A stretch of 64,000 bases of DNA from the NCBI RefSeq assembly GCF_054482525.1, contig NZ_CM137006.1. One strand, 5' to 3'. Positions within the stretch are counted from its first letter, which is position 1. Each line of letters opens with the position of its first letter. Below are positions 9,001-15,000 of the stretch, piece by piece. The position numbers were made by a program.

Positions 9001-12000
9001 GTTCACCATGTGGATGTTGCGGGTTATTTTCCGCGTCAATGTCGAGACAGAAGCCCAGCAGCACGAGTCTTCACGCACCAATGGCGGCGCGCTGATCAGG
9101 ACTATCAATATTCGCGTTGAGAACCCTAACCTGCATGATTTAGCCATTAAAGATGTACCGATTCTCAACGGCGACAAAATTATCTGCTCGCGTCTGAAAC
9201 GAGAAGAAACCCTAAAAGTACCTTCGCCAGATACCATTATCCAACTGGGCGATTTGCTGCATCTGGTGGGGCAGCCAGCGGATTTACATAATGCGCAACT
9301 GGTGATTGGTCAGGAGGTCGATACCTCGCTGTCCACGAAAGGCACTGATTTGCGCGTCGAGCGTGTGGTGGTCACCAATGAAAACGTGCTCGGTAAACGT
9401 ATTCGCGACCTGCATTTTAAAGAACGCTATGACGTTGTTATCTCGCGCCTGAACCGTGCCGGGGTCGAACTGGTCGCCAGTGGCGATATCAGCTTGCAGT
9501 TCGGCGATATCCTCAACCTGGTGGGGCGTCCGTCCGCAATTGATGCCGTTGCCAATGTGCTGGGGAATGCGCAGCAAAAACTGCAACAGGTTCAGATGCT
9601 GCCGGTGTTTATTGGTATCGGGCTTGGCGTATTGTTAGGTTCTATTCCCGTCTTTGTGCCGGGATTCCCGGCCGCGTTGAAACTGGGGCTGGCGGGCGGT
9701 CCGCTGATTATGGCGTTGATCCTCGGGCGTATCGGCAGTATCGGCAAGCTGTACTGGTTTATGCCGCCAAGTGCCAACCTCGCGCTGCGGGAGCTGGGGA
9801 TCGTACTGTTCCTCTCGGTAGTGGGGCTGAAATCTGGTGGGGATTTTGTGAATACCCTGGTCAATGGCGAAGGGCTAAGCTGGATTGGATATGGTGCCCT
9901 GATCACCGCCGTTCCGCTGATTACTGTTGGTATTCTGGCGCGGATGTTAGCCAAAATGAATTACCTGACCATGTGCGGGATGCTGGCTGGCTCCATGACC
10001 GATCCACCGGCGCTGGCGTTTGCTAATAATCTTCATCCAACGAGCGGTGCGGCGGCGCTCTCTTACGCCACTGTCTATCCGTTAGTGATGTTCCTGCGCA
10101 TTATCACCCCCCAATTACTGGCGGTGCTCTTCTGGAGTATCGGTTAACTCTTTTCCGGGTGGAGTCGCCGTAAATGGTACTCCACCTGGTATTCGTTGGC
10201 ATTTCTGAACATTACTGAATAATTCAAAAACTCCCCGCTCTCGCTATATGACAACGAGGTGATCCGCAGCAGTGGCGTGTGTTCCGCTACCTTCATTTGC
10301 CGCGCCAGCAGTCTATCGGCGAGCACCGGCGTCAGGCTTTCATAATTACCGCCAATCAGAATCCCGCACTCTTGTTCAATATATTCAAACTTCGACCCTT
10401 CCAGATGTTGCAGCGAAAGGTTACGGAACAGTTTTACCGGCATATAGCTGTCTTCCAGCATCAGCGGTTTCCCTTCCACAAAACGAACGCGACGGGAGAA
10501 GTAGATCTGCTCGTTGATTTGAATCCGTAACTGGCTGGCAATGGCCGGAGGCGCAGGCATGATTTCAAAAATCAGCACCTGGCTGGTGACCGTTTTTCCC
10601 TGGCGTTTTAACACCTCCACCAGCCCGGTCAGGCTGGCGGTTTGATGCAATACATCTTTGCGCACCAGGTAAGTGCCGCTACCGTGGCGGCGGACCACCA
10701 GCCCCCACGCTACCAGCAGGTCAATGGCTTTACGGATGGTCATCCGCGATACCGCAAACTCTTCCGCCAGCTTTTTTTCACCGGGAAGAAGGCTGTTTAG
10801 CGTGAAATCTGCGGAATTAAGTCGAATTCTTAACCGCTCCGCAATGCTTTTGTAGATCATCTCTAGATCTCTTTTTTGCCTGCAAGCCCGGGTAACGCGC
10901 CCACAAGTTCTGCTTAATCGATTGAAAAAACATCTTTTTTTTAAAGATGTGTTCGATGCTGTGTACCAGTGCTCACAGATGTCTACTTTTTTGCGAAAAC
11001 GTAGATCTCTACCGCCCAACGAAAAGCATGAAAGCGATCACGAATCCCACTGGGTCGTCATGTTCTGCCGATCGCATCTTCCTATCCTCGCTCCAGGCCT
11101 GCCGCATAACCAATCAGGCTTCCTACTTACAGAATTGAGAAAAGAGGATGTGGAAATGCTCAGTCAAATTCAACGCTTTGGCGGCGCGATGTTCACGCCA
11201 GTGCTGCTGTTTCCCTTCGCCGGGATTGTGGTGGGTCTTGCCATCTTGCTGCAAAACCCGATGTTTGTCGGGGAATCACTGACCGATCCGAACAGTTTGT
11301 TCGCGCAAATCGTACACATTATTGAAGAGGGCGGTTGGACGGTATTCCGTAATATGCCGCTGATTTTTGCTGTCGGTTTACCCATTGGCCTTGCTAAGCA
11401 AGCGCAGGGGCGTGCTTGTCTGGCGGTGATGGTGAGTTTCCTGACCTGGAACTATTTCATCAACGCGATGGGAATGACCTGGGGAAGCTACTTCGGCGTC
11501 GATTTCACTCAGGACGCGGTGGCTGGTAGCGGGCTGACAATGATGGCTGGGATTAAAACCCTCGATACCAGCATTATCGGCGCGATTATCATTTCCGGCA
11601 TTGTGACGGCGCTGCATAACCGTCTGTTCGATAAAAAACTGCCGGTTTTTCTCGGCATTTTCCAGGGGACGTCTTATGTGGTGATTATCGCCTTCCTGGT
11701 GATGATCCCCTGCGCCTGGCTGACATTGCTCGGCTGGCCAAAAGTACAAATGGGGATTGAATCTCTGCAAGCGTTCCTGCGTTCGGCGGGTGCGCTTGGG
11801 GTGTGGGTTTACACCTTCCTCGAACGTATTCTGATCCCAACCGGTTTACACCACTTCATCTACGGACCGTTTATCTTTGGTCCGGCAGCTGTTGAAGGCG
11901 GCATTCAGATGTACTGGGCGCAGCATCTGCAAGAGTTCAGTTTGAGCGCCGAGCCGCTGAAATCGTTGTTCCCGGAAGGCGGTTTTGCCCTGCACGGTAA

Positions 12001-15000
12001 CTCAAAAATCTTTGGTGCCGTGGGCATTTCTTTAGCGATGTACTTCACTGCCGCACCGGAAAATCGGGTAAAAGTGGCGGGCTTGCTGATCCCCGCAACC
12101 TTAACCGCCATGCTGGTGGGAATTACCGAACCGCTGGAATTTACCTTCCTGTTCATTTCACCGTTGCTGTTTGCGGTACACGCCGTGCTGGCGGCCTCAA
12201 TGTCGACCGTGATGTACCTCTTTGGTGTGGTGGGCAACATGGGCGGTGGTTTGATTGACCAGGTTTTACCGCAAAACTGGATCCCGATGTTCAGCAACCA
12301 CGCGGATATGATGCTGACCCAAATCGCCATTGGGTTGTGCTTTACCCTGCTGTACTTCGTGGTTTTCCGCACCCTGATTCTGCAATTCAACATGTGCACG
12401 CCGGGACGTGAAGATGCGGAAGTGAAACTCTACTCAAAAGCCGAATACAAAGCCTCGCGAGGCCAAACCACCGCTACAGAGCCAAAAAAAGAGCTGGATC
12501 AGGCTGCCGGTATCCTGCAAGCCCTGGGCGGGGTCGGCAATATCTCCAGCATTAACAATTGCGCGACGCGTTTACGTATTGCACTGCATGACATGTCACA
12601 AACGCTGGATGACGAAGTCTTTAAAAAGCTGGGAGCGCACGGCGTCTTCCGTAGTGGCGATGCCATTCAGGTGATCATTGGTCTGCATGTATCCCAGCTG
12701 CGTGAACAGCTCGATAGCTTAATTAATTCTCATCAATCAGCAGAAAATGTTGCCATTACGGAGGCAGTATAATGACCAAATTCTCAGTGGTTGTCGCAGG
12801 CGGTGGAAGCACCTTTACGCCAGGCATCGTGTTGATGCTCCTGGCGAATCAGGACCGTTTCCCGCTTCGTGCACTGAAATTTTATGATAACGATGGCGCG
12901 CGGCAGGAAGTGATTGCTGAAGCCTGTAAAGTCATCCTTAAAGAGAAAGCGCCGGACATTGCGTTTAGTTACACCACCGATCCTGAAGTGGCATTCAGCG
13001 ACGTTGATTTTGTCATGGCGCACATCCGCGTCGGCAAATACCCGATGCGCGAACTGGATGAAAAAATCCCGCTGCGCCACGGCGTTGTTGGTCAGGAAAC
13101 TTGCGGACCCGGCGGAATAGCGTACGGCATGCGTTCCATTGGCGGCGTCCTGGAACTGGTGGATTATATGGAAAAATATTCACCAAATGCCTGGATGCTC
13201 AACTACTCCAACCCGGCAGCCATTGTCGCAGAAGCCACGCGTCGTCTGCGCCCGAATGCGAAAATCCTCAACATCTGTGACATGCCAATCGGTATTGAAA
13301 GCCGGATGGCGCAAATTGTTGGGCTGCAAGATCGCAAACAGATGCGCGTGCGCTACTACGGCCTGAACCACTTTGGCTGGTGGACATCAATTGAAGATTT
13401 GCAGGGCAACGACCTGATGCCCCAGCTGCGGCAATATGTCTCTAAGCACGGTTATGTTCCACCGCAGCAAGATACACATACTGAAGCGAGCTGGAACGAC
13501 ACCTATGCAAAAGCGCGGGATGTCCAGGCACTGGACCCGGATACATTACCAAACACCTATCTGAAATATTATCTCTTCCCGGATTATGTCGTTCAGCATT
13601 CCAACCCTGAACATACCCGCGCGAATGAGGTGATGGAACATCGCGAGAAACAGGTTTTCGATGCTTGCCGCGCCATTACGGCGGCAGGAAATTCAGCGGC
13701 GGGCAAGCTGGAAATTGACGAACATGCGTCATACATCGTCGATCTGGCGGCGGCAATTGCCTTCAACACTCAGGAGCGGATGTTGCTGATTGTGCCTAAC
13801 AACGGGGCAATCCATAACTTTGATGATGAAGCGATGGTCGAGATCCCGTGTCTGGTCGGGCACAACGGACCAGAACCACTGGTGGTCGGCGATATCCCGC
13901 AGTTTCAGAAAGGGTTAATGAGTCAGCAAGTGGCGGTGGAAAAACTGGTCGTGGACGCCTGGGAACAGCGTTCATATCAGCATCTGTGGCAGGCGATTAC
14001 TTTATCGAAAACGGTACCGAGCGCCTCAGTCGCCAAAGCTATTCTGGATGATTTGCTGGAGGCCAACAAAGCGTACTGGCCAGAGTTACGTTAATTGTGT
14101 GGACTGGCATCCGTTGGGTGCTGGTCCGTATTCTTTAGCACGGCTGACGGCGCATAACCAAATTTATGTTTAAAGGCTTTGCTGAAATGAAAGGAGTCGA
14201 AGAAGTTGAGCGTATCAGCGACTTCGCCAACCGAGTTCCCTTGTTGCTTTAATAGCGATAGCGCCAGATCCAGACGTGCATCGAGGTAATATTCTTTCGG
14301 CGTCTTGCCGGTATAGCGTAAAAACAGACGACGCAACCAGGCTTCGCTACAGGGGATCGTGGCAGCCATATCAGCTACGCTCCAGCGTTGTTGCAGACTG
14401 GCATGTAAAGTGGCAATTAGTTTTTCAATTTGCCGCCGTTGTGGATCTTTTTTACCGTCTGAGTACATAAGACAAATCCACTGATAAATAATTTTCGTCA
14501 GAAAAGCGACTGCCAGATTATTTTTTATTGCTTCTGGTGAAGTAATTAATTCAGCAACTTCGGTGAGTTCCTGATTATAAACTTCGCCATTATAAATAAC
14601 GCTTTGCTGACCGACGGGAATATCCATCATACTGGTGGGGGTAAATTCCATCCAGTACTGTTCCCAGACTAAACCTTCACAGTGATAAGAGTGAATATCC
14701 ATTGGCTTTAAAAATATAATACAGTTGCCATGCAGTGTTATTTGTTCACCATTCTTTAAAATAATTTTCCCACATCCTTGTACGGTATACACCGCAACCC
14801 ATGAGTTGGCGATAAGCGGTTTCTTCTTGTCCCTCGGCCAGATCACCCGATAATGCTCGTCGGCGTAGGTATGCCAGAGCGAGATCAGAGAAATTCCGCT
14901 GGAGATCACATTTTCGTTAATCAATAAGGGAATATTGTACGGAGTTTCGTTTTTTACATCCGAACTTTGCAATTTTCCATTCATTTTAATATCCCTCCGG

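Follow-up and report, generated by a model that had tools for sequence, protein, structure and literature searches.

The 64,000-nt stretch of DNA analyzed here (RefSeq assembly GCF_054482525.1, contig NZ_CM137006.1; referred to below as the window) contains, at positions 11156 to 14094, what is very probably the intact ancestral glv locus, that is, a two-gene alpha-glucoside phosphotransferase system (PTS) operon that is orthologous to AglA/AglB of Klebsiella, homologous to GlvA/GlvC of Bacillus subtilis, and accompanied by its own divergent regulator, YidP. The intactness of the two genes, their orthology, motif residues, and synteny, the purifying selection acting on them, and the lesions of their K-12 counterparts come directly from the present comparisons; the substrates, the dependence on EIIA-Glc, and the regulatory sites are predicted.

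Two uninterrupted genes and their K-12 counterparts

The first gene of the operon is a 1,617-nt frame on the plus strand (positions 11156 to 12772), which encodes a 538-residue PTS EIICB protein plus a stop codon and, in both the list of open reading frames (ORFs) and the direct translation, contains no internal stops. The mechanically called ORF that encloses it is longer and starts with a TTG at 10922. The second gene, a 1,323-nt frame on the same strand (positions 12772 to 14094), likewise translates without internal stops into a 440-residue family 4 glycoside hydrolase (GH4). The TAA of the EIICB gene and the ATG of the hydrolase gene overlap by one base (TAATG; GTATAATGACC), which suggests translational coupling. 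On one side, the operon is flanked by the divergent yidP (positions 10144 to 10860, minus strand), which encodes a 238-residue protein of the GntR/HutC family, and on the other by the convergent yidL (positions 14091 to 14984, minus strand), which encodes an AraC family protein and overlaps the end of the hydrolase gene by 4 nt. The ORF list, the translations, and the RefSeq records thus bear out the coordinates, lengths, and gene order given in the initial annotation, including an uninterrupted fused EIICB with a cysteine motif, a full-length GH4 6-phospho-alpha-glucosidase, and the two flanking regulators, whose families agree with the RefSeq and Pfam assignments.

The overlap between the hydrolase gene and yidL (positions 14091 to 14094) consists of the sequence TTAA, which holds both stop codons; an overlap of the same kind joins yidE and yidP at 10144 to 10147. 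A consensus scan finds no terminator after the hydrolase gene, and there is no terminator-like hairpin between it and yidL. Transcription of either of these genes would continue antisense into the other.

The DNA from 10000 to 15500 is 100% identical to that of three complete Escherichia coli genomes, PCN033, SCU-102, and 19KM1776. In PCN033, the RefSeq coding sequence (CDS) models for EIICB and the hydrolase have the same coordinates as in the window, with yidP and yidL flanking them. That the two frames only appear intact, owing to an assembly or reading artefact that hides a frameshift or a stop codon, is an explanation of almost negligible probability. No point in its support was found, and it is contradicted by the clean translation, by the identical DNA in three independent complete genomes, by more than 1,600 genomes in which the full-length hydrolase gene is annotated as an ordinary CDS, and by an alignment to K-12 that has no gaps apart from a single 508-bp segment.

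In K-12 MG1655 (NC_000913.3), the same chromosomal locus reads yidL, glvG (b4556, a pseudogene of 815 nt), glvB (b3682, 161 residues), glvC (b3683, 368 residues), and yidP. Besides the 508-bp gap, it differs from the window operon by 29 substitutions, corresponding to a nucleotide identity of about 99%. Two of the differences are lesions. The first is a C-to-T change at window position 12260, which turns the CAG of codon 369 (positions 12260 to 12262; Gln369) into TAG, so that GlvC ends there and the GlvB ORF restarts at Met378; the window EIICB is the fused equivalent of these two proteins. The second is the absence from glvG of the 508 bp found at 13365 to 13872 in the window, which encode residues from about 199 to about 367 of the hydrolase. 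A loss of 508 bp, a length not divisible by three, destroys the glvG frame and removes about 170 residues, His200 among them. The 8-bp sequence GAACCACT is present at both edges of the deleted segment (positions 13365 to 13372 and 13873 to 13880), as is typical of deletions that arise between short direct repeats. The window has neither lesion: codon 369 is CAG, the 508-bp segment is present and in frame, and alignment to K-12, which the initial annotation had put forward as a possible refutation, reveals no internal stop or frameshift in either gene. The same annotation listed glvC and glvG as K-12 pseudogenes. Both are indeed damaged in K-12; in the current record, however, glvG alone carries the pseudogene flag, and the truncated glvC remains a CDS.

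Identity of the transporter and the hydrolase

The EIICB protein matches the alpha-glucoside-specific PTS IIBC model TIGR02005 with 958.9 bits against a cutoff of 607.3 (residues 2 to 523 on model positions 1 to 524), whereas its scores with the models for glucose, maltose, N-acetylglucosamine, and beta-glucosides are all below the respective cutoffs. The PtsG models give 247 to 317 bits (cutoffs, 592 to 647). Pfam searches identify a PTS_EIIC domain at residues 10 to 346 and a PTS_EIIB domain at residues 453 to 482, with no match to an EIIA domain. The protein aligns over its whole length with the PtsG structures 8qsr and 9hnp; its GITEP sequence (residues 322 to 326) is aligned with the GITEP of PtsG, and Cys469 (codon at positions 12560 to 12562), found in the NCATRLR motif, is aligned with the cysteine of CITRLR and is the predicted phosphoryl-accepting residue of the EIIB domain. 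The EIIC-EIIB architecture, the GITEP motif, and the EIIB cysteine are shared with PtsG and MalX of E. coli; however, these are only distant paralogues, and the window protein has about 50 residues more in periplasmic and linker content.

In RefSeq, the 538-residue EIICB carries the product name "PTS sugar transporter subunit IIB." The 161-position equivalog model NF007255 matches only residues 378 to 538, which is the span of K-12 GlvB. Its precedence over TIGR02005 is the likely source of the misnaming, which would make the name a relic of the K-12 split.

The hydrolase contains the two Pfam domains of its family, PF02056 (Glyco_hydro_4; residues 6 to 184, E value of 1.9e-66) and PF11975 (Glyco_hydro_4C; residues 195 to 415, E value of 6.5e-56). 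Among solved structures, it matches the 6-phospho-alpha-glucosidase 6dux over residues 1 to 439 with 919 bits (E value of 3.6e-276) and B. subtilis GlvA (1u8x) with 752 bits (E value of 1.7e-225). Other GH4 structures score far lower, with 147 to 211 bits for 6-phospho-beta-glucosidases and at most 55 bits for alpha-glucosidases. The protein contains a GGGS sequence at residues 10 to 13, Cys169 and Asp170 within NICDMP, and His200 within LNHFG. From the GlvA literature, we take GGGS to be the NAD-binding motif, Cys169 a ligand of Mn2+, Asp170 the catalytic base, and His200 the second metal ligand; these three residues presumably correspond to Cys171, Asp172, and His202 in GlvA numbering.

These scores bear on the older view of the locus, in which K-12 glvC was described as an "arbutin specific PTS permease" and the system would be a beta-glucoside PTS paired with a 6-phospho-beta-glucosidase. 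The historical label persists, for example, in Touchon et al. 2009 (PMC2617782), where glvC appears in a gene table within the section on the dynamics of the genome repertoire, and the GH4 family does include 6-phospho-beta-glucosidases, such as 1s6y and 1up6. However, EIICB scores only 45 bits with the beta-glucoside model TIGR01995 (cutoff, 615) against 959 with TIGR02005, and the bit scores of the hydrolase place it with the 6-phospho-alpha-glucosidases, which makes the beta-glucoside assignment highly improbable.

According to the passages of PMC5309279 that report the work of Pikis et al. 2006, the homologues from Klebsiella and Bacillus, when produced in E. coli, transport and phosphorylate alpha-glucosides with the help of EIIA-Glc. 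In the same passages, the Bacillus pair in E. coli is said to require crr and to fail in a crr mutant, and the K-12 homologues are termed cryptic or truncated. The names aglA and aglB are interchanged in PMC5309279 relative to the usage here, in which AglA is the hydrolase and AglB the EIICB.

With alpha-glucosides as the substrates, the operon might work as follows, by analogy with these systems. The phosphoryl group would pass from phosphoenolpyruvate through EI and HPr to EIIA-Glc (Crr), which is encoded elsewhere and would be recruited because the locus itself encodes no EIIA. EIIA-Glc would then phosphorylate Cys469 in the EIIB domain, and the EIIC domain would import an alpha-linked glucoside, with phosphorylation at O-6 of its glucosyl moiety. 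Candidate sugars include methyl-alpha-glucoside, isomaltose, and the sucrose isomers palatinose, turanose, maltulose, leucrose, and trehalulose. Finally, the NAD+- and Mn2+-dependent GH4 enzyme is expected to convert the 6-phospho-alpha-glucoside to glucose-6-phosphate and the aglycone.

Relatives, ancestry, and allele states in E. coli

A scan of one genome per species yielded more than 590 relatives of the hydrolase, and the window proteins were mapped on 78 loci. Over 45 loci have the module consisting of yidP on the minus strand followed by EIICB and GH4 genes on the plus strand; they range from Enterobacterales (Citrobacter, Klebsiella, Raoultella, Kluyvera, Enterobacter, Serratia, Proteus, and Pectobacterium) to Aeromonas and Vibrio. 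The gene order in the window is ibpB-yidE-yidP-EIICB-GH4-yidL-yidK-yidJ, and the module has the same position, between ibpB-yidE and yidL-yidK-yidJ, in Citrobacter braakii, Kluyvera, and Pseudocitrobacter. The same site and order in these genera indicate that the intact state is ancestral and the K-12 state derived.

The closest characterized counterpart, AglA/AglB of Klebsiella pneumoniae, has the same two-gene order and the same kind of divergent yidP-like regulator, and its hydrolase is the one solved as 6dux. The homologues in K. pneumoniae ATCC 13883 are 90% (hydrolase) and 81% (EIICB) identical to the window proteins. Like the window EIICB, the Klebsiella system has no EIIA domain, and the same dependence on EIIA-Glc is to be expected by analogy. 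The downstream neighbors differ in those Klebsiella-group loci that reach beyond the hydrolase gene: yidL-yidK-yidJ are not there in K. indica and Raoultella, and the K. pneumoniae sequence compared spans only the EIICB and GH4 genes. The Klebsiella system has been characterized biochemically and structurally. The maltose PTS of B. subtilis is more remote, with about 74% identity between its GH4 enzyme, GlvA (MalA), and the window hydrolase and about 61% between its EIICB, GlvC (MalP), which also lacks EIIA, and that of the window. The order is reversed in Bacillus loci, where the hydrolase gene precedes the EIICB gene by about 2.2 kb and the two are separated by a gene that is presumably the regulator glvR, of the RpiR type and not a divergent GntR/HutC protein. 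Kluyvera and Superficieibacter carry a second tandem set just downstream of the first, with a yidP-like gene of 56 to 60% identity and a hydrolase gene of 86 to 87% identity; an EIICB copy (75%) was detected within this second set in Superficieibacter only.

Allele states were counted in 5,426 complete E. coli genomes, 4,279 of which contain operon DNA and about 1,147 (21%; B2 strains, such as CFT073) none. The 508-bp segment is present in 1,652 genomes (about 30%), and in every sampled case the corresponding CDS is named 6-phospho-alpha-glucosidase. A K-12-like pattern of 83% coverage, corresponding to the 508-bp deletion, is seen in about 2,618 genomes (48%). Intact alleles are found in O157:H7, BL21/B, WG5, 042, and PCN033. 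In the B2 strain CFT073, window positions 10194 to 14123 are replaced by 49 bp, so that yidP, EIICB, and the hydrolase gene are lost. About 46 to 60 bp of the 3' end of yidP remain there, as does a yidL shortened by its last 30 bp or so at the 3' end, and these remnants identify the B2 state as a deletion and not as ancestral absence. The 3' half of the adjacent yidE is unusually divergent in CFT073, with 85 to 97% identity to the window per 200-bp bin.

Four strains other than K-12 that carry the 508-bp deletion were sampled; the EIICB gene is full length in three of them and frameshifted in the fourth. The K-12 nonsense codon must therefore have arisen later, within its own lineage, and the retention of full-length EIICB in most of the sampled deletion strains may reflect a role that is independent of the hydrolase. 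A comparison of nine sequences places the 508-bp deletion on at least two upstream haplotypes, one shared by K-12 and IAL7250 and the other by 7_26_9A, EC10, and CAVP746, which differ as near as about 140 bp from the junction. In the hydrolase remnant, the differences among deletion strains are almost all synonymous (8 versus 0 to 1), so they should be older than the deletion. This pattern points to a deletion that either recurred at the GAACCACT repeat or spread between backgrounds by recombination.

Other deletions at the locus are associated with insertion sequence (IS) elements. An IS200/IS605 tnpA pseudogene and an intact gene for TnpB, of the RNA-guided endonuclease family, are found at the deletion edges in WG5 and M23917, where the deletions remove yidL through yidI and most of glv through yidI, respectively.

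The great majority of differences among intact E. coli alleles are synonymous. These alleles differ by 19 to 29 synonymous versus 1 to 3 nonsynonymous changes in the EIICB gene and by 16 to 17 versus 2 to 3 in the hydrolase gene, giving ratios of nonsynonymous to synonymous substitution rates (dN/dS) of 0.02 to 0.05 for both. Comparison of the hydrolase with its counterparts in Citrobacter, Klebsiella, Raoultella, and Kluyvera gives dN/dS of 0.03 to 0.04 at dS above 1.3. Such low values argue that the glv proteins are functional where retained.

The synteny data also bear on yidL, which was considered as a glv regulator and rejected. In many genera it is not beside yidP-EIICB-GH4, and in E. 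coli it is lost and kept independently of the operon: CFT073 keeps yidL with yidK-yidJ while glv is gone, and in WG5 yidL is lost along with yidK through yidI while glv is intact. It probably stands outside the glv system and serves the divergent yidK-yidJ pair.

The control region and expression of the operon

YidP combines a GntR-type winged helix-turn-helix domain (PF00392; residues 3 to 64, E value of 6.8e-21) with a UTRA domain (PF07702; residues 87 to 224, E value of 1e-30). The protein belongs to the HutC subfamily, and its divergent linkage to EIICB-GH4 is kept from Citrobacter to Aeromonas and Vibrio; it is likely to act as repressor of the glv operon. The 295-bp region between the two divergent genes (positions 10861 to 11155), aligned across 19 genera, contains noncoding blocks that are conserved at fixed distances from the EIICB start, even though dS in the coding regions exceeds 1.3.

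Closest to the operon is a GAGGA Shine-Dalgarno sequence (positions 11144 to 11148, plus strand), located 7 nt 5' of the EIICB ATG; GAGGAT is invariant in the alignment. Farther upstream, in conserved columns, lies a candidate -10 hexamer, TATCCT (positions 11083 to 11088, plus strand), which is TATTCT or TATGCT in other genera. The strongly conserved sequence CATGAAAGCGATCACG at 11027 to 11042, 48.5 bp upstream of the candidate -10 hexamer, resembles a CRP site, with agreement at 7 of the 10 core positions; chance alone should produce about one match of this quality in 295 bp, and conservation is its sole support. Its columns are nearly invariant: GATCACG is found at about -120 from the EIICB start in 37 of 47 intergenic regions, and CCATGAAAGCGATCACGAATCG is conserved at about -129 to -108. 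The GATCAC block might be a CRP-like site near -61.5, which is a class I position, and would suggest catabolite control of the operon.

Two further blocks, TGTCYA at -176 and GTAGAY (AAAGTAGAC) at -155 from the EIICB start, are fixed in most Enterobacterales loci and are candidate YidP operators. In the window, they correspond to the conserved columns of TGTCTAC..(N)..GTAGATCTCT at 10980 to 11010. A candidate operator half, TAGATCTCT (GTAGACCTCT in other genera), adjoins the yidP start codon at 10864 to 10872 and is a direct repeat, also found at 11002 to 11010. YidP probably represses the operon through the GTAGAY and TGTCYA blocks, from which binding of a sugar-phosphate to its UTRA domain would release it.

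Two other candidates in this region were rejected. The palindrome GTAGATCTCTAC (positions 11001 to 11012) was considered as a YidP operator, but none of the other 46 intergenic regions contains it in exact form. A leader peptide starting at the conserved ATGAAAGCGATCACG block is contradicted by the end of conservation after about 22 nt, the lack of three-base periodicity, and the indels that follow.

In BL21, yidP carries a frameshifting deletion of about 79 bp (window positions 10607 to 10678), bounded by a 7-bp overlap, and the EIICB and hydrolase genes are intact. If YidP is the repressor, the operon in B strains may be constitutively expressed.

Several observations weigh against a working alpha-glucoside operon in E. 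coli. The locus has been inactivated repeatedly in this species, by the 508-bp deletion, the loss of the locus in B2, the IS-associated deletions, and the K-12 nonsense codon, and glv function must therefore be dispensable in many lineages. No canonical sigma-70 promoter is detected between yidP and the EIICB gene by a consensus scan; because of this, the promoter assignment above rests on conservation only, although the result also fits an activator-dependent promoter. A search of the available literature library for phenotypes or expression of the intact E. coli allele, covering palatinose, turanose, isomaltulose, and phenotype microarrays, returned nothing relevant. Furthermore, E. coli appears in identification tables as negative for alpha-methyl-glucoside and palatinose, which is hard to reconcile with easy induction, because about 30% of the strains would then have an active system. 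The one phenotype record retrieved is for a B2 type strain, which scores negative for palatinose, turanose, maltitol, and alpha-methyl-glucoside; this is the outcome to be expected if the strain lacks the locus.

Several of these points would also suit an operon that is intact in sequence but cryptic, silent like bgl, cel/chb, and asc unless activated by mutation, for example, through loss of YidP. The missing canonical promoter, the repeated and independent losses across the species, and the typing results all favor this alternative, and the yidP frameshift beside an intact glv in BL21 is a mutation of the type by which cryptic operons become active. Nevertheless, a fully silent operon should decay, whereas both genes are under strong purifying selection, and the conserved Shine-Dalgarno sequence, -10-like element, and CRP-like site are shared with Klebsiella and other genera for which a functional orthologous system has been demonstrated. 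Silence of the operon is therefore a possibility to be reckoned with, but not a probable one. An intact ancestral system that is functional where retained is the preferred reading.

The remainder of the window offers several unrelated observations. Its identity to PCN033 is 99.98% before position 22153 and about 98% beyond it, so the two are related but different strains; at 22153, PCN033 has 711 bp more, annotated as an IS200C transposase and absent from the window. A tandem array of repeats of about 291 bp, with 84 to 88% identity between units, extends from about 42628 to 48193, inside a very large gene for an adhesin of the Ig-like-domain/inverse-autotransporter type, and contains more units than in PCN033. 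Rfam matches include a ROSE_2 thermoregulator 5' of ibpA (positions 7271 to 7343), the istR antitoxin RNA beside tisB (22021 to 22150), and tRNA-Sec (61830 to 61920, minus strand). Beyond tRNA-Sec, the PCN033 annotation describes an island that encodes translocon components and chaperones for type III secretion, as well as eilA.

Much of this picture is already known: the genes have RefSeq annotations, biochemical and structural work on the orthologous system is available, and the K-12 defect and the absence of the locus from B2 have been published. With about 30% of complete E. coli genomes having it, the intact state is not rare, and it is not new either. The present analysis adds the exact lesions, the allele frequencies, evidence for the ancestral nature of the intact state, the selection estimates, the conserved control blocks, and the annotation artefact; the understanding of systems of this type is unchanged by it. 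More speculatively, the locus could be a polymorphic and possibly selected metabolic switch, with the 30% or so of strains that keep it using an alpha-glucoside/sucrose-isomer pathway as a niche trait. E. coli backgrounds in which the genes are intact, namely, O157:H7, B/BL21, 042, and PCN033-like strains, may be able to use alpha-glucosides, isomaltose and isomaltulose among them, whereas K-12 and about half of the species are without a working hydrolase and B2 strains are without the whole locus. These differences bear, with modest practical value, on the choice of strains for fermentation of starch-derived feedstocks, on metabolic models based on K-12, and on diets that contain sucrose isomers.

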